Below, piece by piece: positions 1 through 14,896 of a stretch of DNA of 14,896 nt. A model generated the notes under the pieces. The model did not search any database. It worked only from the letters and a program-made list of their open reading frames with translations, and was not told where the DNA came from. This stretch comes from Octopus sinensis (lineage: Eukaryota). The translations under genes were made by a program, and so were the position numbers. Numbering within the stretch: the stretch's first letter is position 1; every line of letters begins with the position of its first letter. The stretch spans positions 1 to 14,896 of the forward strand of contig NW_021825658.1 of the NCBI RefSeq assembly GCF_006345805.1, in the 5' to 3' direction.

Positions 1-35
1 TATCTATATACATGAATACATATATATGTACATAT

Positions 36-91
<56 letters not shown>

Positions 92-440
92 AATATATAT
101 ATGTGTATGTATGTCTGCATGTGCACGTACGTTGATAATTATATATTTATAAATACACACACATATATACACACATACATACACATATACATGTATGCTT
201 TCGCATGCATACATATAAACATACATACACACATATACACGGGAAATATATATAAATATACATACATACATATACAAATATGCACACATACATGCATATA
301 TGTACACATGCATTCGCATATACAAACAAGTATACTTATATACCTAAACACATACATACATACAACATACATACATACATAGCCACATACATAAATACGC
401 TGATGCATGCATAGAAACATACATATATACAAGCATGCAC
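1..440. repeat. (TATC)n plus cryptic (TACA)/(TA)/(CA) low-complexity tract
   Basis: Pure TATC run at ~36-90 followed by degenerate TACA/CA repeats; explains the YLSI/HTYI ORFs. Confidence 0.95.
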
Positions 441-579
441 ATAAATAGTCGACGTTACTAATATTTCATTGGTTCATCGTACCTTATATTGTCTAAACAT
501 TTCCTATAGGTATCTTCATTAGCGAACATAACCGTAGAGAAATATGTACAACCCCCCTAACCTACCCCATACATTCATA

Positions 580-641
580 AGTATGTATTTATGTATGCAT
601 GCGTATATGTATGTATCTATAGCTATATCTATATCTATTTC

Positions 642-673
<32 letters not shown>

Positions 674-718
674 TGTATGTATGTATGTATCTATCTATCT
701 ATCTATCTATCTATATAT

Positions 719-757
<39 letters not shown>
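580..757. repeat. Compound microsatellite (TATG)n-(TATC)n-(TA)n
   Basis: Directly visible tandem units. Confidence 0.95.
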
Positions 758-997
758 ATGTGTAAAGCGATTTATTTCGTACTATACGAGAGTTTCACGC
801 TAGGGCGAAACACATAAGTATTTGCATAAAATGGTCTCACGCGAGTAGACAAGAATTTGGACAGAGCCACCTTTACAGGATATTGCCGTAGTCGTTGAAG
901 TAAAATACCTTCACAATCGTGATTAAGTCTGTTGAAGACCGGTGGATCCAAATTCCTGGAGACTACAGTGAAGCAATGCAACGGAAGTAGCTACCGA

Positions 998-1533
998 CAT
1001 ACATACATACATACATACATACATACATACATACATACATACATACATACATGCATGCATGCATGCATGCATGCATACATACATACATACATACATACAT
1101 ACATGCATACATGGATACATACATACATACATACATACATACATACATGCATACATACATACATACATGCATGCATACATACATACCATACATACATACA
1201 TACATACATACATACGGACATACATACGTAAACAGAGACACATACATAGCTAGCTAGCTAGACACACAGACAGACAGATAATAGACAGTTAGATAGATAG
1301 AAAGATAGATACATACATACATAGGTAGGTAGATAGATAGATAGATAGGTAGGTAGATAAACATATAGATAGATAAACAGACGGACAGGCAATCGGACAG
1401 ACAGATAGATAGGTAGATAGACAGATAGACAGATAGATAGGGAGGGAGAAAGAGAGAGAGGAACGGACAGACAGACTGATAGACAAACAGGCAAACATAT
1501 AGATAGATAGAATGAGAGAGAGAGAGAGAGAGA

Positions 1534-1573
<40 letters not shown>

Positions 1574-1574
1574 G
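998..1574. repeat. Compound microsatellite (CATA/CATG)n, (GATA/GACA)n, (GA)n(GT)n(GA)n
   Basis: Directly visible tandem units. Confidence 0.95.
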
Positions 1575-1870
1575 CGATTGGTAAGTTTCGAAGGGACTGA
1601 AATGCAATGAAAATCAAATCTAAAATAAAAAAATTAAGTAGAATATTTACGATCGCGTGTGCGCATACATGTGTGCGTATGTCTGCGTGAGTGTGTGCGT
1701 CTGTGAGTGTGTTTGCATCTTTGTTTATATTCCTGAATGATACAATGTTTTGTCTCTCTTTATAATTTATACTAGAGCGTAACATAGTATTTTAATTGAC
1801 ACAAATTAATAAAGTATACACCAGAAATAGATGCAAGAGTCGATATCATTAACAGGAAAACTGAAGTGAG

Positions 1871-1917
1871 GCTCCAGCATGGCCGGAGCCCAGTAACTGA
1901 AACCATTTAAAGAATAA
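1871..1917 (+). mobile_element. 3' tail fragment of SINE family A
   Basis: gctccagcatggccg...aactgaaac matches the 3' end of the copy at 10217-10627 (gctccagcatggccgcagtcaaatgactgaaac). Confidence 0.65.
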
Positions 1918-1944
1918 CAGATACACATTCATGTATATATGTAT

Positions 1945-2203
1945 GTAGGGTTCATACTGTGGCACCTGTTCCTTCTGCCAGTCAGCACATCTGTGCATTA
2001 TGCAATACAATGCGCAAAACTTTCATCCGGCTCAAGAGTCATACAAGGGCCTCACTTTGCTTCATCAATGACTCATTTCAATGGTTCTTTCTGGCAATGG
2101 CTTTGCTCGTATACAAGAAATCACTTACTATGTATGTATGTATGTATGTATGTATGTATGTATGTATGTATGTATGTATGTATGTATGTATGTATGTATG
2201 TAT
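1945..2203 (+). mobile_element. Probable 3' end of a decayed RTE-clade LINE with (TATG)n tail
   Basis: 1986-2051 reads HICALCNTMRKTFIRLKSHTRA; single changes (cgc>tgc, cgg>ggg) give CxxCxxxCKTxxGLKSHxR, like the C-terminal finger of RTE ORFs; short UTR then (TATG)n at 2129-2203. Confidence 0.5.
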
Positions 2204-2412
2204 TGTATCTGTGTAAACGCTCGCCTATGTGTACAATAATTTATATATATATATTAGTCGAAAGACACCTGTTGTTATTCTCTATTTGTTTGTATTTGTA
2301 TTAGTGTAACATTTTCTCCGTTTTCTCGTTTTTTTTTTGTCTGTGTTGTCGTACATACTTTCTTGCCTTCTTTCAAAAATGTAATGGTCTTAGCTTAGAT
2401 TTTTGGGGCCTA

Positions 2413-2479
2413 CCAATTTTGAACAGTCTCAAGTGTAACAGGCTGAAACTGTAATGATAATTGGAAGCTTGACTGATGA
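2413..2479 (+). ncRNA. Degenerate hammerhead-like scaffold with downstream CTGATGA box
   Basis: CCAATT-TTGAACA-GTCT..AGGC-t-GAAAC-tgtaat-GAT-AATTGG: 6 bp stem I, 4 bp stem II, non-canonical core; CTGATGA at 2473-2479. Confidence 0.4.
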
Positions 2480-2586
2480 GTAGAGGGCCACAAATTATCC
2501 GTCCTAGTTTTTCCTGTCCGTTTTAGTATCGTTTATCTGTCCTTATATTTTTATTGTCGTCCGTTACGTTCTTATTCCGTTTTTTG

Positions 2587-2589
<3 letters not shown>

Positions 2590-2644
<55 letters not shown>

Positions 2645-2648
2645 TATA
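2590..2648. repeat. (TA)n microsatellite
   Basis: Directly visible. Confidence 0.97.
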
Positions 2649-2803
2649 ATAAGAGTAAATAATTTCTATAATGGTTTTAAAAAGAACCCACAATTACTTA
2701 CTGGTAGAATTCGGTATGTAAATATAGCCGATTAACGGTAGGAACTTCTGTAAAGTTCAGTATATATATTGTATATAAGTAAATGGGATAGGCAACAGGA
2801 AAG

Positions 2804-2916
2804 CTGCGCTGAAGACGGATGTTAAATACATATGCAATGTATATGAAATATATATTAAAAATATATATTCAATATATATTCAATATATTTATAATCCAGA
2901 AACATGATGTTTGCAG
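2804..2916 (+). ncRNA. Type I hammerhead ribozyme candidate with long stem II
   Basis: Stem I CTGCG(2804-2808)/TGCAG(2912-2916); CTGAAGA 2809-2815; stem II GGAT..ATCC extended by an AT-rich imperfect hairpin; GAAA 2899-2902; stem III ACAT-G-ATGT; GUU cleavage triplet ending at 2911. Confidence 0.7.
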
Positions 2917-3031
2917 ATAACCGCCATACTTTGTTTTCGTTATCTATTCCTTCTGTTTTGCATATGTGAATTACAGGGTATGTCGTGTGTGGAGCCCCAC
3001 TTGTAGAAAATAGAAATAAACAGTCTTGACT

Positions 3032-3267
3032 GCTAAGTTACGGGGACGTAAACTCACCAACATCGGTTGTCAAATAGACACAGACACAAACGCACACACA
3101 TATACGACGGGCTTCTTTCAGTTTCCGTCTAACAAATCCGGTCAGAAGTCTTTGGTCAACCCAAGGCTGTTGTCGAAGGCACTCGTCCATGGTGCCACGC
3201 AGTGGAACTGTTCCCGGAACTATATAGTTGGGAAGCTAGCTTCTTACAACACAGCCACGCCTGCACC
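3032..3267 (-). mobile_element. SINE family A, 3'-truncated copy
   Basis: Reverse complement aligns to 10217-~10485, including the head (gtggctgtgttgtaagaagctagc) and gacggaaactgaaagaagcccgtcg. Confidence 0.9.
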
Positions 3268-3282
3268 TATTGATGTATATTG

Positions 3283-3351
3283 CTGGATTCGAATAGTCTC
3301 GGTCCTAAAAGGGTGCGAAACTATAATGACTTACCAGAAACCGACAGATGA
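3283..3351 (+). ncRNA. Degenerate hammerhead-like scaffold related to 2413-2479
   Basis: CTGG..gaatagtctc..GAAAC-tataat-GAC-tta-CCAG, then CAGATGA at 3345-3351; shares gaaYagtctc and gaaactRtaatga with 2421-2457. Confidence 0.3.
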
Positions 3352-3515
3352 AGAAATCTGCTGCGAATGGTCCATATATCTTGTTTCTGTTCTGTTTGCC
3401 GTTTGTTATATTATCGTCTGTGTTATCGCTTATGTAAGTTATCGTCTATTTTTCCGCATGTTGTGTTTTGTTCAATTTCGCTTATGTTCTTTTTGTCCTA
3501 CCTTTGTTTTATATA

Positions 3516-3529
3516 TAATAATGATGATG

Positions 3530-3602
<73 letters not shown>
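3516..3602. repeat. (TAA)n microsatellite
   Basis: Directly visible; source of the poly-I/poly-N ORFs. Confidence 0.97.
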
Positions 3603-3605
<3 letters not shown>

Positions 3606-3620
3606 CAATATATATATGTA

Positions 3621-3676
3621 TTACTCTTTTCTCTTTTACTCTTTTACTTGTTTCAGTCATTTAACTGCGGCCATGC
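3621..3676 (-). mobile_element. 3' tail fragment of SINE family A
   Basis: ctcttttacttgtttcagtcatttaactgcggccatgc is the reverse complement of ~10576-10612, with a similar short repeated tail. Confidence 0.85.
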
Positions 3677-4640
3677 ATGTATGGGTCTAGGACGTCCGTA
3701 ACTGTGTAAGCAACATGAAATACGTAGACAAACGAGTTAAATACATAAAGAACGAGAGAAAAAAATGGAAAACTGGGCAAGTAAACACAGAGAAACGACC
3801 CTTCATCAGTTGTCAGCCGTCTATCTACTCCTCATTTCGAGCATTCAACGACAATGAGTCTTCAAAGACAGTTGCTCTCTTAAATTCTAAAATAAATTTA
3901 GGATTTATGGAGGGTCAAAGTTGAGAACAAAAACAGGACAGTGGAGACATACAAGGAAGCCGAACAAAAACAAACATGGAGGATCGTTAGACCAGAACGA
4001 GAGGAAAATAGTGTACGCTAGGAGAAATATTTTCTTTGAAAAGAGAAAAGATAGAAGAGAGAGAGAGAGAGAGAGATAGAGAGAGAAAAAGTCCACTTCT
4101 ATGAACGTCCGTGCTGGAAAAGAAAGATGGTAATGTGTGAGCAACGAGAGAGAGAGAGAGAGAGAAAGAAAGAAAAACAGATAGGAATCGGTGAACGAGG
4201 GAGGGGGAGAAAAAGGGAATTAGAGAAGGATGGCGGGAGACAATAGTTTCTTTTTTTGTTTCTCCCTTCTATCTTTCCTCAACGAAAATATTTCACCCAG
4301 CGTTCACTATTTTCCTCTAGCTCTGGTTTAACCATCCTCTATGTTTGTTTTCGTTCGGCTTCCTTGTATGTCTCCAGTGTCCTGTTTTTGTTTTCAAATT
4401 TGACCCTCCATAAATCCGAAATTTTATTTTAGAATTTATGGGGGCAACTGTCTTTGAAGACTCATACTGTCGTTGAATGCTCGAAATGAGGAATAGATAG
4501 AGAGCCGACACCTGATGAAGGATCGTTTCTCTGTGTTTACTTGTCCAGTTTTCCGCTTTTTCTCTCGTTGTTTATGTATTTAACTCGTTTGTGTACGTAT
4601 TTCATGTTTACACAGTTGGTGACGTCCTATACCTATATAT
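3677..4640. repeat. Long inverted repeat: arms ~3677-4062 and ~4261-4640, spacer ~200 bp
   Basis: Arms are reverse complements along their length, e.g. catgaaatacgtagacaaacgagttaaatacataaa vs tttatgtatttaactcgtttgtgtacgtatttcatg, with scattered mismatches. Confidence 0.95.
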
Positions 4641-4656
4641 GCACTATATATATATA

Positions 4657-4701
<45 letters not shown>

Positions 4702-4740
4702 TATTTATATATATACATATATATATATTATTATGCATAG

Positions 4741-4795
<55 letters not shown>

Positions 4796-4800
4796 GAAGA

Positions 4801-4882
<82 letters not shown>

Positions 4883-4902
4883 AATAATGATAATAATAAT
4901 AA
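4636..4902. repeat. (TA)n followed by (TAA)n microsatellites
   Basis: Directly visible. Confidence 0.97.
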
Positions 4903-5140
4903 GTGGGTGTAAACACATGAATGAAATAAGAATAAACAAAAACAAAAACAAATTACACAAATTACACGAACGTATATAAACAGAAGATACAAATATTAAA
5001 GGCATTCCCCCCACCACACTAACTAAACATAGACGCATATAGAGATATACGCATGCGCAAATGGAGACACATACAATAGAAATACAAAATGGCTGACGAG
5101 TAGTAAGGAGAGACACACAAATAAGAAAGAAGAAAGCAAA

Positions 5141-5185
5141 GGATCACTGATGCGGTCACAGGAGTGTGACGAAAGAATTCTGGCC
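5141..5185 (+). ncRNA. Minimal hammerhead-like motif (A9>C variant)
   Basis: GGATCA-CTGATGC-G-GTCACA-ggag-TGTGAC-GAAA-GAATTC-TGGCC: perfect 6 bp stem II directly followed by GAAA, palindromic stem III region, imperfect stem I. Confidence 0.5.
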
Positions 5186-5297
5186 GAAATAAGATTAAGA
5201 TTAATGTAAAAAATAAATAACGCTTAAACAAAGTAGCACCAAATATATAGTGCGTGTGTTTTTATTGATTAAACTGGCAAAATGATCATTCCTAAAT

Positions 5298-5328
<31 letters not shown>

Positions 5329-5425
5329 ACGGGAAGCTTTATGAAAATAAACAAAAGACGAAGGCAGGTGGAATACAAACAAACAATTGTATTAGTATGG
5401 CGCTCAGGAATATAAATAAAGCAAG

Positions 5426-5463
5426 TCTTTTACGTTTCGAGCCTACGCTCTTCAACAGAAAGA
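5426..5463 (-). ncRNA. Minimal type I hammerhead ribozyme candidate (A6>U variant)
   Basis: Minus strand TCTTT-CTGTTGA-A-GAGC-gtag-GCTC-GAA-ACGT-A-AAAGA: 5 bp stem I, 4 bp stem II, loopless palindromic stem III, GUA triplet. Confidence 0.65.
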
Positions 5464-5764
5464 TACACAGAAAAGAAACACAGAAAGAAACAAGGAGAGA
5501 AAAAAATGCGTGCAGAGGCTAGCGAATCAACGGCAAATAAGAAAACGGAGTGGATATAAAATCGACAGACATCAGCCTGTAAACATTCCAGTATGTCTGT
5601 TTATTTAAATGTATTGGATAAATACACACACATGTATGAGTGAAGGGCATGAAAATATATAAGCATATAGAAACAAATGAGCAAGAGAGCAAATTGGCAA
5701 TAAACTGAATGGGTGTGCAGGTGCTAGTTCCTAGTTGGTTTCTCAACCTCTAACTCACACAGAA

Positions 5765-5765
<1 letters not shown>

Positions 5766-5804
<39 letters not shown>

Positions 5805-5806
5805 AT
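5766..5806. repeat. (CA)n microsatellite
   Basis: Directly visible. Confidence 0.95.
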
Positions 5807-5809
5807 ACC

Positions 5810-6185
5810 ACCCGGTCTTGGGTCCACTGTCATTGAGTACCGCTGTCTTCTGCTGTAGTCTCCGCTGACCAATGACACGTGAGTGAATTTGTTATTCGGA
5901 AACTGAGTGAAAGCCCTACACGTGTATGTATGTATGTATGTATGTATGTATGTATGTATGTATGTATGTATGTATGCATGTATGTGTGTGCTTTGTATTT
6001 GTGTTCGTCTCCCACTACCACTCCTCAACCGTTGTTGGTTTCTTTATGTTTGTGTTAACTAGCGGTCCGGCAAAAGAGGTTCGATAGAATTAGTACCAGA
6101 GTTAACAATAAGCACCTGTTCGATTAAACCGCCGTAGGCGGTGTCGCAGCACAGCAGTGGTTCATTGACTGTAACAAGTAAAACA
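5810..6185 (+). mobile_element. Old diverged SINE family A copy with internal (TATG)n
   Basis: tgtcttctgctgtag, gtgagtgaatttg, cggaaactga, tagcggtccggcaaaagag, gatagaat and tgactgtaacaagtaaa are colinear with 10217-10627; head eroded. Confidence 0.8.
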
Positions 6186-6594
6186 GATTATCTCCCTTTT
6201 TCATGGAAAGTTTTTTTCTTAACATTTACTTTCGGTTTCATTTTCTTTCCCCTGAAGTAAATTTCTATTCAATAATCCAATAGATAACCACCTACCTCAA
6301 CCACATATATTCATATCTTTCACCCAATTGAATTAATTCCCTAGGCCTAATTTCTGTAATTATGACGATGACAACGTCCAGATTATCATATCCTCATGAA
6401 TATTAACCCATAGATGTGGAAGAGAGGGATAGATCACATGTTCATAGCTCGAGAGTGTCAACTATAAAGTAATTAGCTCTCCAAGGCAGGACATGTTAAT
6501 TGAATACAGTTCTCACAATTAATGAAACATGACGGTTCTAATTAGACAGGAAACGTTTTAATTGTGATTAAGGTTTGTTGTTGCTTTGGCACTC

Positions 6595-6688
6595 ATATAC
6601 ATACATACATACATACATACATACATACATACATACATACATACATACATACATGTATGTGTGTGTGTTTGTGTGTATGTGTGTGTGT
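6595..6688. repeat. (CATA)n-(TG)n microsatellite
   Basis: Directly visible; abuts the 3' end of the SINE at 6690-7001. Confidence 0.95.
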
Positions 6689-6689
6689 C

Positions 6690-7001
6690 GGTTACGACGA
6701 TGAGGGTTACAGTAGATCCGATCGACGGAACAGCCTGCTCGTGAAATTAACGTGCAAGTGGCTGAGCATTCCACAGACACATGAGCCCTTAATGTAGTTC
6801 TCAGGAAGATACAACGTCACATAGAGTGTGACAAGGCTGGCCCCTTTGAAATACAGGTACAACTCATTTTTTCCAGCTGAATGACCTGGAGCAACGTGAA
6901 ATAAAGTATCTTGTTCAAGGACACAACGAGCTGCCGGGAACTGAACTCACGACCTTACGATGGTGAGCCAAATACCCTAACCACTAAACCATGCGCCTTC
7001 A
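6690..7001 (-). mobile_element. tRNA-derived SINE family B
   Basis: Minus strand starts tgaaggcgca with A box TGGTTTAGTGG (6981-6991) and B box GAGTTCAGTTCCC (6936-6948), then gtgtccttgaacaagatacttt; head shared with 13292-13409. Confidence 0.85.
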
Positions 7002-7027
7002 AACATACACACGCACACACATGTATG

Positions 7028-7060
<33 letters not shown>

Positions 7061-7075
7061 GTATGTGCGTAAATA

Positions 7076-7238
7076 CGCAGGCATGGCTGAGAAGCTCGTT
7101 TCAGAATCCCGTAGTTTCGGATTTCAGCTCCTCTGTAGAGTGCCAGGGGTAAGTGCCTTTTCTATTAGCCTTGCTAGACTAAAATGCTTTATGAGCAAAC
7201 TTGGCGTAAACGGAAACTGTGAAGAAGTCCTGCATATA
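7076..7238 (+). mobile_element. Diverged 5' half of SINE family A
   Basis: cgcaggcatggctg..agaagct..aagtgccttttctatta..acggaaactgtgaagaag is colinear with 10217-10380. Confidence 0.65.
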
Positions 7239-7504
7239 TATTACACTCATTTGATTTATTAATCACTAGTGTCGTAAATAGCTGTCGGATTGGGTAAAAA
7301 TTGGTTATTATGGACAGAAGCAATGTTAGTTCAAAATAGCATTCTGTATATCTTACTTAAAGCGGATATAGTACAGAGAGCCACACAGCTGCAGTGTTTC
7401 TCTAGAAAAAGCATCTCGTATAGATGTTTAGTGCTAAAAAGTACAGCACAGATGAGCATCATCAGCAGATGACAAAAGCCTACAAGCAGTGGTGGAGTTT
7501 CAAG

Positions 7505-7591
7505 GATTTGAACTCGATACATAAAATGCCGGAAAAGATGATGTTGAGTATTTTGTCCGACGTGCAAAGGAACCTGTTAACTTGCAACCTT
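7505..7591 (-). mobile_element. Diverged head of SINE family C
   Basis: gatttgaactc...tattttgtccgacgtgc...aacttgcaacctt resembles the reverse complement of 7977-8062. Confidence 0.5.
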
Positions 7592-7610
7592 ACTTTTCCA
7601 CATTGTAAAT

Positions 7611-7891
7611 CAAGAGTTCTCAACTATTTTTTTTTTATCTATGGATCCCTTTGATTACTATTCTTTACTACTGGACCCCCATAGTCATTCGATTTTAAAA
7701 CCTATTTTTATAGAAACCCCTTTCAAGAATCCTATTTTATTTTTCACGCGTTAACTTGAGTAGGTTGAACCGTGTAAAATGTTATAGAAAGAAACCTGTT
7801 TCTTACAGTATATACCAATATATACATCTAAAGCAAATTTTTTTTCATGGGCCCTTAAAATACTATTGTGGACCCCCAGTTTAATATTTTG
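7611..7891. mobile_element. Possible decayed hAT-type MITE
   Basis: Left end caagagttctcaac resembles the CAGTGGTTCTCAAC hAT/Charlie terminus; repeated tggacccc motifs; right end eroded, no TSD seen. Confidence 0.35.
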
Positions 7892-7899
7892 CTTGCGTA

Positions 7900-8423
7900 G
7901 GTCAAGGTAATCGACTTTCCCTATACCCCGAAACTTCTGGCCTTGTGCTAAAATTTGAAACCATTATTATTATTTCAAGGCAGCGAGCTGGCAGAATCGT
8001 TAACACGCAAGACAAAATGTCTAGTGGCCTTTCGTCCCTCTTCACGTTCTAAGTTCAAATTCCGACGAAGTCGGCTTTGCCTTTCATCCTTTTTGGGTCG
8101 ATAAAATACGTACTATCTGAGCACTGGGGTTGATATAATCGACTTACTCCCTCTCCCAAAATTGCTGACTTTGTGCTAAAATTTGAAACGATTACTATTA
8201 TTGTAAGGCAGCGAACTGGCAGAATCGTTAAAACACAGGGGACAATGCTTAGTGGCATTTCGTCCGTCTTTACTTTCTGAGTTCAAATTCCGCCGAGGTC
8301 GACTTTGCCTTTCATCCTTTTTGGGTCGATAAAATAAGTACTATCCGAGCACTGGGGTCGATGTAATCGAATTACTCCCTCCCCCAAAATTGCTGGCATT
8401 GTATCAGAATTTGAAACTAATAT
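7900..8423 (+). mobile_element. Tandem array of SINE family C (about 2.3 units, 228 bp period), Nin/Deu-like central domain
   Basis: Units start aaggcagcgaRctggcagaatcgtt at 7977 and 8205; B box GAGTTCAAATTCC 8279-8291; core gtcgactttgcctttcatcctttttgggtcgataaaataagtac; 3' third of another unit at 7900-7976. Confidence 0.9.
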
Positions 8424-8429
8424 ATCGCA

Positions 8430-9052
8430 TACATAGCTAAGGCTCGAGTGAGGCCCATAAAGGAGTAATGCAGTCAATCTAAGGCGGTGTTACTGCTGCA
8501 GAAAATGAGATTCTGGATTGCATCCAGAGGAGGATCAATTGTTTGGTATTGAACCATTAACGGGTACACTTGAGCTTCTCACCCACAGGCCTGCTGCGTG
8601 TGGTCTGTGAAACCTATTTGAGTTAGATGTAGGCGTAGTGTGTTGTTACCTAGGTGAAATGTGTGTGTATTGGCTGTACCCTTTCTAAACAACAGAGCCC
8701 GTGACCTTTGCAAAGCGTTGAAGACTGGTGAACTTATCTTTTCTATTGTTACCAAAATGGCCTCCGTTCTCCGAAGCTGGAAGCGCTTGTACCCTTATCA
8801 CTCCTCCTCACTTGATTCTCTGTTCTTTCCACATCGTGTCTAATTGCATCAGTTCTGCACTAGCCATTATGCCAAATCCATATCCCCCAGAATATCATCC
8901 TTCTGGAATCTCCTTCCCGTTCACGTATTTCGCGTAGATGTTGACTAGCAATCGCTTAAAAGGAACATCAGCGGCACCAAATTCACTAATATTAGAGGCT
9001 CTGCAAAAGACACGGGCTCTGCCCCTTCTTTCAGAAGGGGTACAGCCAATAT
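8430..9052 (+). mobile_element. Decayed LINE 3' end (CR1/Jockey-group ORF2 C-terminus plus 3' UTR), interrupted at 8599-8734
   Basis: Manual translation across stops and frameshifts: KARVRPIKE*CS..GG..ILDCIQRR..LELLTHR..FYCYQNGLRSPKLEALVP..TSHYAKSISPRISSFWNLLPVHVF..D*QSLKRNI, matching the post-RT motifs VRPxxEYCS, LDxIQRR and WNxLP. Confidence 0.85.
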
Positions 9053-9228
9053 AATACACACACACGCGCACACACACACACACATTTCACCCACGTCACA
9101 ATAGACCTCGCAAACACCTTACATAGATCACAGACCACATATTAATCTTATTCATCCATACTATCCCCACAAACTTAGTACGTAAGAGATACATACAAGC
9201 TTAGCCACTAGCTTCACAAACGTCTCAC

Positions 9229-9229
<1 letters not shown>

Positions 9230-9311
<82 letters not shown>

Positions 9312-9345
9312 GCAAACACACACACTTACACACACGCACACTCAC
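9230..9345. repeat. (CA)n microsatellite
   Basis: Directly visible. Confidence 0.97.
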
Positions 9346-9394
9346 CCATTCTTAATATTCTCTCCACAAACATCTATAACTGTCTTAATGTATA

Positions 9395-9603
9395 CAGTAA
9401 TTCCTCGACTATCGCGGGTGTTACGTTCCAAAACATCCCACAGAAATAATTAAAATCTACAAAAATATATCAGAGACCCAGATATGTTGAGGAGTCCGTG
9501 ATATAAATTTACATATATTAACCAGAAAAATCCGTGATCTATGGGTGAACCGCGATGTACTGAGTGCACGATAGGCGAACCGCGATATGGCGACGAATTA
9601 CTG
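9395..9603. mobile_element. Tc1/mariner (pogo/Tigger-like) MITE, 209 bp
   Basis: TIRs cagtaattcctcgactatcgcgg (9395-9417) and ccgcgatatggcgacgaattactg (9580-9603), TA on both flanks, subterminal gaaccgcgat at 9547 and 9577. Confidence 0.9.
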
Positions 9604-9620
9604 TATATAAATAATACTCA

Positions 9621-9680
9621 TGAATGTCTGATGAGCGGTTACAGGAAACTCCAACCCCGCGAATCTCCGTCTTGTGTTCA
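9621..9680 (+). ncRNA. Degenerate type I hammerhead ribozyme
   Basis: TGAATGT-CTGATGA(9628-9634)-GCGG..CCGC-GAAt-C-tcc-GTC-tt-GTGTTCA: perfect stem II base, GAAA>GAAT, GUC triplet, wobble-rich displaced stem I. Confidence 0.55.
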
Positions 9681-9784
9681 GAAGCGCGCGCGCGCAGTGT
9701 GCGTATTTTCTGCGTGCATGTGTGTTGTGATATATAATAGCGTCAGTGTGTATTTTTGCTCGTCTGTGTGTATGTTTCTGTTAT

Positions 9785-10108
9785 CTTTTTCTGTTTCCTG
9801 TTTCATGCGGCCACGCTGGGGCAACGAATCGATCCCAGTATTTATCTTTTATGCCTGGTAAATTAGCGGAGTCGCTAAGTTACGGGGACGTAAGCACACC
9901 AATATCGGTTGTCAAGTTGTGATCCGTGGAAAACACACACACACACACACAACGTAACGTACATATATATACGACGGGCTTCTTTCAGTGTCCGTCTAAC
10001 AAATTCACTCACAAGGCTTTGGTCAGCCTGAGGATATGCTGGAAAACACTTACCCAAGGTGCCACGCAGTGATACTGAACCCGGAACCACGTGTTCGGGA
10101 AGCAAGCT
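9785..10108 (-). mobile_element. SINE family A copy lacking its first ~25 nt (head found at 10868-10899)
   Basis: 9873-10108 is the reverse complement of ~10242-10485; eroded tail at 9785-9860. Confidence 0.9.
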
Positions 10109-10216
10109 TTTTTTTTATTTCATTAAATTGGCTATGGAAGCCGTACACAGATGTAGAAACTGCGGGCTGGATAAAGACATTAATAAGATGAGATGAATGA
10201 TGAACAGGAAGGTATA

Positions 10217-10627
10217 GGCGCAGGAGTGGCTGTGTGGTAAGTAGCTTGCTAACCAACCACATGGTTCTGGGTTCAGTCCCACTGCGTGGCATCTTGGGCA
10301 AGTGTCTTCTGCTATAGCCCCAGGCCGACCAATGCCTTGTGAGTGGATTTGGTAGACGGAAACTGAAAGAAGCCTGTCGTATATATGTATATATATATAT
10401 ATGTGTGTGTTTGTGTGTCTGTGTTTGTCCCCCTAGCATTGCTTGACAACTGATGCTGGTGTGTTTACGTCCCCGTCACTTAGCGGTTCGGCAAAAAAGA
10501 GACCGATAGAATAAGTACTGGGCTTACAAAGAATAAGTACCGGGGTTAATTTGCTCGACTAAAGGCTGTGCTCCAGCATGGCCGCAGTCAAATGACTGAA
10601 ACAAGTAAAAGAGAGTAAAAGAGAGTA
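10217..10627 (+). mobile_element. Near-intact tRNA-derived SINE family A (CORE-like block, internal TA/TG tract)
   Basis: A box TGGCTGTGTGG 10227-10237, B box GGTTCAGTCCC 10270-10280, cttgggcaagtgtctt block, tandem tail (gtaaaagaga)x2; several relatives in the window. Confidence 0.95.
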
Positions 10628-10690
10628 TTAATAAGAGGAGGCTAAAGACGCCCGTCGTTCTTTGCTTCTCTAAAACATTGTTCTTTTGTG

Positions 10691-10868
10691 AACTTACAAT
10701 TTGAGGCAATATTTTTTTGGGGACTCAAGGTCCTTACAATGAGGCACTAAGCTTCTTACCTCAAATGACACCTTGTCCTTGAAATGAGGCACTTGGCCTC
10801 TTACAATTTTCTTCGTATTGGCTATATGTCCTTTCAATATGAGGCACTCATCCTCTTTTACAATTTAC
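10691..10868. repeat. Degenerate spaced direct repeats, core ATGAGGCACT
   Basis: gtcctt..atgaggcact..ct(c)ttac units start at 10730, 10775 and 10828; partial unit at 10691-10710. Confidence 0.75.
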
Positions 10869-10899
10869 AAGCTCCTTGCCACACAGCCACGCTTACGCC
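10868..10899 (-). mobile_element. Detached 5' head of SINE family A
   Basis: Reverse complement ggcgtaagcgtggctgtgtggcaaggagcttg matches 10217-10248. Confidence 0.8.
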
Positions 10900-10929
10900 T
10901 ATATATATGTATAATATTTGCATATTTCT

Positions 10930-10991
<62 letters not shown>

Positions 10992-11062
10992 ATGTGTGTG
11001 TGTGTCTGTGTGTGTGTCTGTGTGTGTGTGTCTGTGTGTATGTCTCTGTGTGTGTGTATGTA
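10930..11062. repeat. (CA)n(TA)n(TG)n compound microsatellite
   Basis: Directly visible. Confidence 0.95.
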
Positions 11063-11450
11063 TATTTGCATATTTCCAGGGCTTAATAATAAAATAACAG
11101 AAATCATTATCAGTTACTCTCAAACTATAAAATGCGTTTCATCATTCACCTTTTTTCCATGCAAAAATTACCAATATTTTGGATGGCCATGGAGCGGGAA
11201 AGAATATTGAACATGGCGGTGGTTGGACATTATTACTGAAAAATAATAGCCTGATTGATCCAATCTTATTCCAGTTCTTGAAGTCTTTGAGAAATTTAAT
11301 AACACCGAGCAGTAGCAGCAGATATTTTCTTTACTTGATCGGAGCTGATGAAACGAGATACTTGCTTAAAATTCTCATATGTGGACATGAAACGAACACT
11401 CCCGGCCAATAACGTTCCAATGAACAGATATTATTATATTAACTAACAGA

Positions 11451-11488
11451 CTGCTACTACTACTGCTGCTGCTGCTGCTGCTACTACT

Positions 11489-11567
<79 letters not shown>

Positions 11568-11676
11568 CACCCACCACCACCACCACCACACCACCACCAC
11601 CAGCACCACCACTGCCGCCGCCGCCGCCACCACGGCCGCCACCACCACTGCCACCACCACCACCACCACCACCACC

Positions 11677-11728
<52 letters not shown>

Positions 11729-12657
11729 GAATAAGAACAGTGGCAGTAGTATTTGTAACAACAATAAAAATAGCAATAAAAACAACATTAATAATAACAA
11801 CAACAACAACAACAATAACAACAACAACAACAACAGTAGTAATAATGATATAGCGAGGCCAGTAATAACATTGTCGCATCAATAATGCTAGTAGTGGCAG
11901 CAGCGTTAGAAGAAGTTAAAAGTAATGATAATGGTGATGATGATGGTGATGATGAGGTGATGGTGAGATGATGATGATGAGGAGGAGGTGGAGGTGGAGA
12001 ATGGTGATGATAAGACCAATCTCTTGTAAACCAACAGCTATAACGATGACCTACTAAACTCGTAACACAACGACTTATGTATCATCAACGCAGCTCTCAC
12101 CGTTATCATCATCATCATCATCATCATCACCATTATCACTATCAATATCTTAATCCACCCACCATCACCACCACCATCATCACCACTACCACCATCGTCA
12201 TTATCATTGTCATTGCTATCGTCACCATCATCAACATCATCACCATTATCATCATGATCATCACCACAACCCAACCACGAACACCACCACTATCATAACC
12301 ACCACCTTCATTATAACCACAACCACCGCCACCACCTCCTCCAGGTCGCCCCCGCCGCTGCCGTCATCACCATCACCACTATCACCTCCATCAACTACCA
12401 ATATCACCACCACCATCACCATCATTATCACTACCATCGTCATTCTAACCGTTGTCGTCGTCGTCGCCACAGTCTTTGTAAACAACAACAACAACATCAA
12501 CAACAACACAACACAACAACAGTATCCACAGCACACTAGAGCGCGAAGGGAAGCAGCAATATCCGTAACTATGGTAACGAAATAATAAATTATTTATATA
12601 TTTATTTAGTAACACAATATATCAACGACACGGACAATAATTGAAATATCAGCTAAT

Positions 12658-12704
<47 letters not shown>

Positions 12705-12860
12705 AAACATCATCAACAGCAGTAATGACAACAGCAACAAAAACAACAATAATTAGTGCTGCTCGATTGGGACTGAAATATCAGCTAATACCAGCAACAG
12801 CAGCAGCAGCGGCCACAACATCCTCAACAGCAGCAATAATAACAACAACAGCAACGGTTG
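11451..12860. repeat. 1.4 kb mosaic of trinucleotide repeats (CTA, CTG, CCA, CCG, CAA, GAT, GAG, CAT, CAG)
   Basis: Directly visible; phase slips at ~11490, ~11571 and ~11590. Confidence 0.95.
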
Positions 12861-13067
12861 CGGTGACGGCGGCAAGGTTGATTGCTGTCATTTGACGAAA
12901 AGGGAGTCGGTTGTTGCATTTATTGAATTACCTGCCCTTGAATTAAAGTGTCCATAACTGAAATATTGTTCCTTCGAAGAGTCCCTGGAATACCATTACT
13001 CAGGAGGGTGCCTAGCTAGGAGATCAAGCAGTTTCTCCCGGTCAAGCTGCTATTCCTATGCATTAAG

Positions 13068-13102
13068 AGGTCATAGCTCTGGTACTAGGTCATAGCTCTG
13101 GT
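13068..13102. repeat. 16 bp exact direct repeat aggtcatagctctggt, 19 bp period
   Basis: Copies at 13068-13083 and 13087-13102. Confidence 0.9.
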
Positions 13103-13107
13103 GATTA

Positions 13108-13409
13108 GGGTAAAAGACCCCGTTCGGTCATGAATAACCATGGGATTGCACCTAGAAAGTTCCCCTCCGAGCCACAAGTTCGGGCAAGGTGGTTTATGCA
13201 GTCGCCCATGCATACAAGCTTCCTCTCTCCATGCCACCGATGTTATCCAAGCGAAAGGCAAAGGCCGAGACAGCTTGGCACTAGTGATGTCGCAACGTGA
13301 AATAAAGTGTCTTGCTCAAGAATACAACACACAGCCCGGTCCGGAAATCGAACTCACTACCTTATGATTTTGGGCTCGACGCTCTAGCCATTGAGCAATG
13401 CACCTTCAC
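13108..13409 (-). mobile_element. tRNA-derived SINE with a family B head and a different 3' body
   Basis: B box GAGTTCGATTTCC 13343-13355; gcaacgtgaaataaagtgtcttgctcaag shared with 6891-6919; 13108-13290 is unrelated to 6690-6860 and its 3' limit rests on recall of the family. Confidence 0.75.
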
Positions 13410-13546
13410 CCCACCCATATATATATATATCTATCTTGTATTTTATTGTGCAGTTTTATTGTTACGTCCTGTTTGTGTTACATTTTTTACGTGCTTGTTT
13501 TACCCCTCTGCGAGGTTATTTTATTTTAATTGTCTCGCAAGAAGGC

Positions 13547-13601
13547 CTAGTATTGACGAGTCGTGTCCTGTCTTGCTTTCGAAACACGCTAAGTCTACTA
13601 G
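13547..13601 (+). ncRNA. Type I hammerhead ribozyme candidate (C3>U), followed by a second CTGATGA at 13608
   Basis: CTAGTA-TTGACGA-G..C-GAAA-C-acgctaa-GTC-TACTAG: perfect 6 bp stem I in register, G-C closing pair, GUC triplet; rest of stem II weak. Confidence 0.6.
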
Positions 13602-13963
13602 CGACAGCTGATGATTGGGGATTTTCCTTGTGTAGCTTGTCCTGTACCTTGTTTTTCTGTTGTAAATAATGTTTTTCCCGTTTTCGTTCTCGTCCTGTTC
13701 CACGTCTCTGTCTTTCTGTTGTAAAAAAATGACTTTTCCGTTTTCGTTTCTGTCGAGTTCTACGTCTTTTTGTGGTGTCCTGTACTTACGTATATATATA
13801 TTTATATATGCATGTATATATACATGTAGATGTAGGTACGTACATATATGTTTGTATGTATGCATATATTTTATTTATTACACTATTGTCTGACAGCGCT
13901 TCGCGTCGGGTTCGTTCGATTCTTCGCTTCGTTCCGTTTCTTATCCTCCCAGTATTGTTTTAT

Positions 13964-13966
<3 letters not shown>

Positions 13967-14022
<56 letters not shown>
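13967..14022. repeat. (CA)n(TA)n microsatellite
   Basis: Directly visible. Confidence 0.95.
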
Positions 14023-14023
<1 letters not shown>

Positions 14024-14126
14024 CCGGAGTAAACACATAAATGTGAAACAAGGTGGAAAAAAGAGTACTCAAATACCAGTGGTAGAGTAATATGCTTTAT
14101 TTAAAGCAGCAGAAAATTTAACAAAA

Positions 14127-14150
14127 CCTGTTACTCTGAGTTTCACGTTC
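14127..14150 (-). ncRNA. 3' half of a hammerhead motif truncated at (AT)n
   Basis: Minus strand gaacgt-GAAA-CTC-a-GAG-TA-acagg: near-palindromic stem III and GUA triplet; no CUGANGA half. Confidence 0.35.
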
Positions 14151-14167
14151 ATATATATATATGTATC

Positions 14168-14203
<36 letters not shown>

Positions 14204-14360
14204 TATCATCATTATCATCATGATGCCTAGGCTGGCACGCTGGAAGGCTGCGTGAAGCTCCAGTCTGATTTGGCATGGTTTTCTACCGCTGGATGCCCTT
14301 CCTAAATCCAACCACTCCGTGACTGTAATCGGTGCTTTTATGTGTCACCTGCACGGTTAC
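14168..14360 (-). mobile_element. Retroposon 3' fragment with (GAT)n tail
   Basis: Minus strand gtggttggatttaggaagggcatccagcggtagaaaacc, a motif I recall from animal SINE/LINE repeats, ending in (GAT)n at 14168-14222; no second copy in the window. Confidence 0.5.
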
Positions 14361-14424
14361 CATATCCTACACACAGTTACGCGCGCGCGCGTTCATGTGT
14401 GTGTGTGTGTGTGTCTGTGTGTGT

Positions 14425-14590
14425 GTGCAGGTGCGGCTGTGTGGTAAGAAGCTTGTTTCTCAATCACGTGATTTCGGGTTCAGCTCCACTGCGTGGAACC
14501 TTGGACAAGTGTCTTCTACTATAGTCTCGAGCCAACCAAAGCCATAGGAGTAGAACTGATAAATAGAAACTAAAAGAAGCCTTTCGCATA
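14425..14590 (+). mobile_element. 5' half of SINE family A
   Basis: ggctgtgtggtaagaagcttg, gggttcagctccactgcgtggaaccttggacaagtgtcttctactatag align to 10217-10380. Confidence 0.9.
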
Positions 14591-14797
14591 CACACGCGCG
14601 CGCGCACGCGTGTGTGTGTAATTGCTTTTTAGAAAAGCGAAATTTGAAGCAGATTCGAACATATAAAATATTGGGTAAAAGAACCCTTTAGACAGAAAAA
14701 TTCGAAAGGTTTTCATGCATTTTATCTGCTTCGTGACTGGCAGTTGCAAAGAGACTATTTCACATTCTTTCGAAGTTTATAAATTATATGACGTCAT

Positions 14798-14799
<2 letters not shown>

Positions 14800-14853
<54 letters not shown>
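14800..14853. repeat. (TA)n microsatellite
   Basis: Directly visible. Confidence 0.97.
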
Positions 14854-14856
<3 letters not shown>

Positions 14857-14896
14857 TAGCAAGGATGTCCAGGTATCAGTGCATTACGGCCGTTTC

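Follow-up and report, generated by a model that had tools for sequence, protein, structure and literature searches.

Rearranged hammerhead-ribozyme motifs with an apparently split core in Octopus sinensis repeats, and their likely link to Naiad-type Penelope-like elements

A stretch of 14,896 nucleotides (nt) of Octopus sinensis DNA (RefSeq assembly GCF_006345805.1, contig NW_021825658.1, positions 1 to 14,896 of the forward strand; hereafter the window) carries ten hammerhead-ribozyme-like motifs, which an earlier note had all placed in type I order (stem I, NUGANGA-like box, stem II, GAAA, stem III, cleavage site). This raises the question of what kind of hammerhead these motifs are and which elements they belong to. 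The motifs are real, and half of them were mis-read: hammerhead words are present at all ten sites, but type I order held clearly at 2804+ and 5426- only, weakly at 5141+ and doubtfully at 9621+, and 14127- is, as proposed, a half motif. In the other five (2413+, 3283+, 3821-, 4448+, and 13547+), the blocks follow the non-circular order cleavage-site strand, GAAA, CUGAUGA (S-G-C). We estimate a probability of about 0.6 that these five are S-G-C hammerheads whose stem II is closed by a strand upstream of the motif, and that they are likely 3' ends of Naiad-type Penelope-like elements (PLEs) or of short derivatives; from their sequence, self-cleavage is predicted. The ordinary part of the locus consists of type I PLE hammerhead remnants. 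Its notable part is a rearranged hammerhead carried by at least four repeat families of the window, and this is likely a Naiad ribozyme that had been overlooked.

When the five motifs are parsed as type I, the supposed NUGANGA-like box has 1-3 mismatches and there is no stem II in any of them, with at most one leading pair; the true box lies downstream (Table 1). Most of the apparent core changes in these five, which had suggested dead copies, arose because the wrong box was taken. Four of the five do carry a defect, and decay in most copies is supported. A strict S-G-C descriptor gave four matches in the window against a mean of 0.013 in shuffled sequence (0/300 shuffles reach four), and the other five block orders gave none. 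A relaxed S-G-C descriptor gave six matches against 0.5 in shuffles (0/150 reach six). Two of these, 13315+ and 7465-, look like chance and were set aside. Parsing the window as type II or type III, or in the CSG or GCS order, gave no strict match and relaxed matches at chance level, and these parses were dropped; a narrow-pattern search of the window found no match. All scan descriptors were composed after inspection of the motifs, so the shuffle figures are optimistic. The shuffled controls proposed earlier favored hammerheads of both kinds (for type I, two matches against 0.003). In the proposed Rfam check, the 150 of 168 matches listed (E<=10) were microsatellite-driven and of microRNA type, with no hammerhead among them.

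We then compared seven copies, namely the five of the window (A to E) and two from metagenomes (L006 and L007), counting pairs on anchored blocks. Stem III has five of five Watson-Crick pairs in all seven copies; both of its sides vary at four of the five pairs between families, and pairing drops to 1-4 of five when strands are swapped across families. Stem I has five Watson-Crick pairs in four of the five window copies, with paired changes in three sequence types. The spacing is narrow (H17 to G12, 14-19 nt; G12 to C3, about 26-29 nt). Within the window, the CUGANGA box joined to stem I is exact in four of five copies (one mismatch in copy B), GAAA with the A15.1-U16.1 pair and stem III is present in all five, and a U-H cleavage site is found in four (GUC, GUC, AUA, and GUC). 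H17 is never G in the six intact copies, nor in the Naiad places read. Copy E is the best kept, with every core letter intact and a single G-U in stem II, and is predicted to be self-cleaving. In copy C, pairwise alignment with its sister copy D shows a deletion of 2 nt at the cleavage site, and with these bases missing copy C is likely dead. The pairing of both stems is kept in four families that differ in sequence, in agreement with the earlier view that several distinct families are present.

A kink-turn-like internal loop adjoins stem III in copies A (2417-2464) and B (3287-3337) and is absent from C, D, E, L006 and L007, judging by eye against a kink-turn consensus. The loop of copy A resembles a box C/D kink-turn (3-nt bulge, tandem G-A pairs, flanking helices), and the loops of both copies may bind a protein of the L7Ae family.

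To locate stem II, a helix was anchored at position 11.1 and partners were sought on both sides. In all seven copies the better partner of the 11.x strand is a strand upstream of the whole motif, with 5-6 contiguous pairs from 11.1, versus 0-4 leading pairs directly after A9; the duplex energies are -5.3 to -8.5 and +0.6 to -2.2 kcal/mol, respectively. This strand generally sits 20-25 nt before U16.1, and its combined P is 0.005 including L006 and 0.02 for the window alone. Since the upstream partner is better in seven of seven copies, the core block appears to be split between A9 and G10.1, an arrangement outside the six published permutations. A scan for all four blocks found four cases in the window versus 0.018 in shuffled sequence (0/1000 shuffles). 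As a further control, among 183 listed viral loci holding both core words (62 and at least 121), stems I and III were found in three and the four-block arrangement in none, and another scan of viral sequences gave no matches.

An outer helix lies between the upstream strand and stem III, with its partner preceding stem I. Compared with shuffles it reaches 0.002-0.28 per copy and 0.0004 combined, mainly from L006, and it is present together with stem III in all five nested folds of the window copies. Taken together, these elements suggest a fold in which the outer helix and stem III would form a hairpin, with a 14-19-nt loop holding the cut site, one strand of stem I, the 11.x strand, and GAA. 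This loop would pair downstream to form stem I, bringing in CUGAUGA, and upstream to form stem II, starting with G10.1-C11.1. The product would be a four-strand, doubly pseudoknotted hammerhead that cuts 3' of H17 as a monomer; as stem III is 5 bp long, no dimerization would be needed, which departs from the minimal, dimer-acting hammerheads that the earlier note had envisaged for these five motifs.

Table 1. Hammerhead motifs and associated repeats of the window (positions are those of the whole stretch; roles in the permuted copies are as proposed in the text).
Feature	Positions	Strand	Details
Permuted hammerhead, copy A	2407..2479	+	Upstream strand 2407-11; outer helix 2413-17/2460-64; stem III 2423-27/2448-52; H17 = C2428; stem I 2429-33/2468-72; GAA 2445-47; CUGAUGA 2473-79 (C3 at 2473); C11.1 is U
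Permuted hammerhead, copy B	3263..3351	+	Upstream strand 3263-68 (farther off than in the others); H17 = C3298; G12 3317; box 3345-51 (C3 at 3345), U4 changed to A
Permuted hammerhead, copy C	3803..3877	-	Upstream strand 3877-73, 5/5 Watson-Crick; cleavage site deleted; G12 3838; CUGAUGA 3809-03 (C3 at 3809)
Permuted hammerhead, copy D	4442..4518	+	Upstream strand 4442-46; AUA site, H17 = A4466; G12 4483; CUGAUGA 4512-18 (C3 at 4512); first stem I pair mismatched
Permuted hammerhead, copy E	13541..13614	+	Upstream stem II strand 13541-46; outer helix 13547-52/13596-601; stem III 13562-66/13584-88; H17 = C13567 (GUC); stem I 13568-72/13603-07; 11.x strand 13575-80; GAA 13581-83; CUGAUGA 13608-14 (C3 at 13608)
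Head-to-head inverted pair of one family	3674..4643		3674-4038 and 4280-4643, 89% identical; holds copies C and D; seen by self-BLAST and as an inverted repeat
Many-copy non-coding repeat, ~355 bp	13432..13787	+	Carries copy E; begins directly after (TA)n, ends at TA-rich DNA
Type I hammerhead, Hydra-clade-like	2804..2916	+	4-bp stem III with 1-nt loop; long AT-rich stem II; H17 = U2911
Decayed minimal type I hammerhead	5141..5185	+	6-bp stem II; A9 changed; weak stem I
Minimal type I hammerhead	5426..5463	-	Palindromic 4-nt stem III; extra base after A9; G10.1-C11.1; A6 changed; H17 = A5431
Doubtful type I motif	9621..9682	+	CUGAUGA intact; 4-bp stem II; A15.1 changed; stem I mainly wobble
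3' half of Hydra-clade-like type I hammerhead	14127..14144	-	GAA; 4-bp stem III, 1-nt loop; H17 = A14132; (TA)n replaces 5' half

The closest published relatives of the five motifs are the non-circularly permuted hammerheads of Eckert et al. (2023; PMC10085705). The permutations described there include the non-circular S-G-C order, type SGC coming from metatranscriptomes and type CSG from metagenomes (two sequences only), and neither type was found in the genomes of known organisms, whereas the window copies lie in animal genomic repeats. The window copies share with SGC the strand order and with both types the short stretch that links stem I with the 11.x strand and, as predicted here, a pseudoknotted core and a further helix connecting stems I and II; the geometry from H17 to G12 is that of SGC-1. 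They differ in stem II, whose strand follows CUGAUGA in the published SGC hammerheads, so that the block order of type SGC is found in the window but its unbroken block C is not. The published descriptors need stem II directly after the box and, judged by eye, would miss the window copies. Because the outer helix has the connections of the SGC-1 interaction helix, the layout would correspond to the SGC/CSG ring opened between A9 and G10.1, with the outer helix as the interaction helix of stems I and II. A distant strand that supplies most of helix II, as proposed here, is also known from the pseudoknotted (PK) hammerhead (Zhan et al., 2024; PMC11300833). We found no description of this rearranged, knotted order in the literature, and neither permuted hammerheads from PLEs, Naiads or octopus nor a core split at A9 turned up there; the search covered full-text literature excluding most subscription journals, with passages of PMC13725137, PMC7761336, PMC7229834, PMC10162972, PMC6765202, and PMC13282606 among those seen.

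The elements that best match the setting of the five motifs are Naiads (Craig et al., 2021; PMC8557442), which are described as preferring (TA)n, as forming inverted pairs, a head-to-head arrangement being typical of PLE insertions, and as being present in cephalopods as remnants only. Canonical hammerheads are reported to be lacking in them; eight entries, two of them cephalopod, are tagged 'HHR_half_core', with GAAA on either side. We searched the supplementary Naiad file (54 consensuses) for short strings and judged motifs by eye. Of 19 places with CUGAUGA, eight show the split layout (Bfor, Amil, Aacu, Anas, the octopus entries Obim and Ovul, and two without a displayed name), two an intact CSG hammerhead, one a degenerate and one an unclear motif, and seven nothing. 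The 36 places with CGAAAC added six CSG motifs in the nematode part, where CSG is thus found at eight places (Nbra-1, -2, -3, Hpol, and four unnamed) with long stems and an interaction helix. A non-circular hammerhead is therefore present at no fewer than 16 places, apparently in 16 of the 54 consensuses, a lower bound because line breaks and other letters at N7 hide motifs. In the split cases the upstream strand makes six pairs, the first being G10.1-C11.1, with one mismatch in Aacu. The Obim Naiad has the internal-loop letters of copy A, and by eye the kink-turn-like loop is present in octopus Naiads too. Four of the five stem I pairs of copy E recur in Obim, where the fifth shows a compensatory change. 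Separately, several Naiads of the arthropod part have a common C-rich lead-in to CUGACGA.

The window copies resemble Naiads in their (TA)n surroundings, an inverted pair, the 3'-terminal position and, by eye, the four-strand layout of the eight places, although the paper describes no permuted hammerhead in the passages seen. The next (TA)n or (TAA)n lies 111-186 nt past A9, the repeat of copy E starts at (TA)n, and copies C and D sit in a head-to-head pair, as expected from the Naiad insertion bias; the simple-repeat flanks noticed earlier are real, but with simple repeats making up about 22% of the window the agreement with (TA)n is weak. By this comparison the repeats are likely to descend from Naiads. 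The tie to Penelope-like elements that the earlier note had drawn is supported.

The repeat that carries copy E is present in many copies. A query of 13420-13880 matched 357, 553, 189, and 115 contigs in the four sequencing runs searched (three organism labels), mostly 90-99% alike; matches were filtered at 80%, contig depth is not a copy number, and the right limit of the repeat falls where repeats are excluded from matching. Among 43 core and stem positions only 13577 has a substitution at 20% or more, and this change turns the G-U of stem II into G-C, the pair found in nearly all matching contigs. The repeat has 20 variable places in 356 bases, which puts the expectation for these 43 positions at about 2.4; with one seen and the bias of the 80% filter, the low variation is consistent with the fold but not significant. 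One contig of run X10 lacks 13560-62. No head-to-tail joint was found among the contigs, which are short. The repeat also contains a 60-bp tandem duplication (13650-13767), for which contigs show a joint 55 bases back. Of the earlier suggestion that ribozyme-bearing families make up much of the apparently unique DNA here, many-copy status is supported for the one family tested; SINE-like (short interspersed nuclear element-like) dispersed repeats cover a comparable share of the window by self-BLAST.

A metagenome scan in which stem I and the core words alone were fixed gave nine loci. Seven were set aside as chance, their stem III failing, while L006 and L007, of one family, have a perfect stem III, an outer helix of 8-9 bp, and an upstream strand of 6 bp. 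Both (L006:1-1061 and L007:1-1109) consist of a non-coding tandem unit of ~970 nt (GC content 51-52%) with one permuted hammerhead per unit, a retrozyme-like organization, and Rfam gave one weak unrelated match on them. L007 has a second conserved CUGAUGA in the unit (L007:611), for which no partner was found. Non-LTR (long terminal repeat) retrozymes (Cervera and de la Peña, 2020; PMC7229834; Li et al., 2026, preprint) are likewise short non-coding ribozyme repeats related to PLE ends, but they carry type I hammerheads in tandem, whereas the window copies are dispersed monomers with the permuted fold.

Several points weigh against Naiad-linked hammerheads with a split core. Taken singly, the upstream strands are weak (P = 0.045-0.19), that of copy B lies 34 nt before U16.1, the nested folds do not exceed shuffled sequence in stability (z = -0.02 to 1.07), and there are the defects of four window copies and the non-significant variation of the copy E repeat. 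We found no precedent in the literature for a break between A9 and G10.1: insertions of more than 1-2 nt at this point are unknown according to Eckert et al. (PMC10085705), and the PK hammerhead has circular strand order, with G10.1 beside A9 in the crystal structure (PMC11300833). On the Naiad side, besides the reading by eye, stem I of the ctenophore Bfor is only 2 bp long, no complete motif was seen in 38 of the 54 consensuses, and no open reading frame (ORF) joins the window repeats to a Naiad in the translated part, most of the window; for truncated or non-autonomous copies, such an absence is expected. Finally, a G stands one base after A9 in copies B, C, and D, in L006 and L007, in the majority of the copy E family, and in octopus Naiads, and G10.1 could therefore come from there.

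This last point is the basis of the alternative that fares best, which we nevertheless consider unlikely: the motifs would be intact type-SGC hammerheads with a single extra base between A9 and G10.1. The upstream strand would then lengthen stem II past its first one or two pairs, as in the PK hammerhead, where the distal strand replaces most of helix II, or would act as an off-switch that holds the 11.x strand until displaced. The geometry shared with SGC-1 is consistent with it, and so is the ability of copy C and the majority of the copy E family to form four pairs there, wobbles included; in that majority, one A and then G's follow A9, allowing four pairs with two wobbles, which supports this alternative. 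Against it, the upstream pairing is longer and more stable in seven of seven copies and always starts exactly at 11.1, and in four Naiad lineages, judged by eye, neither A9+1 nor A9+2 is a G. An intact SGC hammerhead with a downstream interaction helix was rejected, as that helix is not above shuffles (0.19-0.88).

It should be noted that the split Naiad-linked, intact-SGC, non-catalytic and non-Naiad explanations are not mutually exclusive in the probabilities we attach to them. Of lower probability still is a hammerhead-derived fold that no longer cuts alone. It would either be a signal by which the element's protein binds or starts reverse transcription, or need that protein in order to cut. 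The PLE hammerhead of the anole requires its protein for cleavage, and insertion in vitro proceeds without this hammerhead. Cleavage by minimal PLE hammerheads is poor, a role in RNA processing having been proposed for PLE hammerheads (PMC4209133), and eight of nine Xenopus retrozyme dimers remained uncleaved; however, distantly related phyla retain all catalytic letters, the U-H rule, and the G10.1-C11.1 pair. We hold it equally improbable that the ribozyme is real but the window repeats are not Naiad-derived; they would then be free families resembling retrozymes, which came by this fold through exchange or convergence. In favor of this, the window lacks an ORF, the same fold occurs in the tandem unit of L006 and L007, and only 1-5% of contigs of the copy E repeat continue into unlike sequence. 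On the other side stand the loop letters and stem I held in common with octopus Naiads and the (TA)n ends, head-to-head pair and 3'-terminal position that match Naiad insertions, and non-autonomous Naiad derivatives would fit both explanations.

That the five motifs are decayed type I minimal hammerheads acting as dimers, as first proposed, is very improbable: although a type I parse of copy E yields six pairs in stem I, a box with one mismatch, GAAA and GUC, and four copies have a TTGA-like word ahead of stem III, the missing stem II in five of five copies speaks against it, and the exact CUGAUGA, perfect stems I and III, and fixed spacing are left unexplained. Least probable of all is that short words fell into this arrangement by chance, in DNA that is rich in AT and in repeats. 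Even with descriptors composed after inspection and about 0.5 chance matches per order in relaxed scans, none of the 300 and 1000 shuffles reached the count of the window and none of the 183 listed control loci had the four-block arrangement, which recurs in L006/L007 and in Naiad consensuses.

If the five motifs are split-core Naiad hammerheads, cleavage 3' of H17, possibly aided by a protein, would release or trim the element RNA from longer or tandem transcripts, as has been proposed for other PLE hammerheads. Insertion of copies at (TA)n would fall to the Naiad reverse transcriptase (RT) with its GIY-YIG endonuclease, supplied in trans or active before the copies were truncated. We also favor, with little more than even confidence, a broader proposal: that this is a seventh natural wiring of the hammerhead, with the core opened between A9 and G10.1 and four strands, and the resident ribozyme of many Naiads from ctenophores to octopus, while nematode Naiads use intact CSG, so that non-circularly permuted ribozymes would be common and high-copy in animal genomes yet missed by all current descriptors. 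Were this true, such ribozymes would reach animal chromosomes, beyond uncharacterized metatranscriptome RNAs, and the rule, as stated, that CUGAUGA is inseparable from the stem II strand would be broken. The apparent lack of hammerheads in Naiads, which are among the most abundant PLEs, would be explained, and several of the 'half-core' annotations would be resolved. Moreover, CSG and split forms within one retroelement clade would offer a traceable route for the evolution of RNA permutations, a matter left open by Eckert et al. (PMC10085705).

The remaining motifs (2804+, 5426-, 5141+, 14127- and, doubtfully, 9621+) belong to other families and are PLE hammerheads of the ordinary type I. The type I descriptor with at most one defect recovered 2804+ and 5426- (0/300 dinucleotide shuffles reach two) and missed 9621+. 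The stem II of 2804+ has one extra base on either side, and the motif folds to a three-way junction (z = -3.46); in the predicted fold, this stem is lengthened by ~75 AT-rich bases (2817-2897) that form a single long hairpin. Among the minimal PLE hammerheads of Cervera and De la Peña (2014; PMC4209133), the features listed are borne by 5426-, and 5426-, 5141+, 2804+, and 14127- fit these or the Hydra-clade hammerheads (PMC8557442), all being dispersed single motifs that share the extra base after A9, G10.1-C11.1, and a short or palindromic stem III; the five permuted motifs differ in strand order and in their 5-bp stem III. The half motif 14127- is nearly identical to the 3' half of the Hydra-2_aMil row (PMC8557442, File S2).

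The window as a whole is non-coding, with 11,549 of 14,896 bases left after masking of simple repeats. In agreement with the earlier note, 18 six-frame translations covering 1575-4644, 4903-10929 and 11062-14799 gave no Pfam match to RT or GIY-YIG, and no tRNA genes were found in the window. Isolated CUGANGA words without a fitting hammerhead parse occur at 5093-5099 and 11345-11351. A SINE-like family with internal microsatellites is present on both strands (3029-3270, 5844-6190, 9873-10112, 10214-10624, and 14425-14590; 67-84% alike), a second dispersed family at 6891-7001 and 13292-13408, and a tandem duplication at 7908-8417 (228-bp unit, 2.1 copies, 86% alike). Outside the window, a viral contig carries what is, by eye, an ordinary type II hammerhead (L143:151-198), with two pattern matches 275 bases apart.

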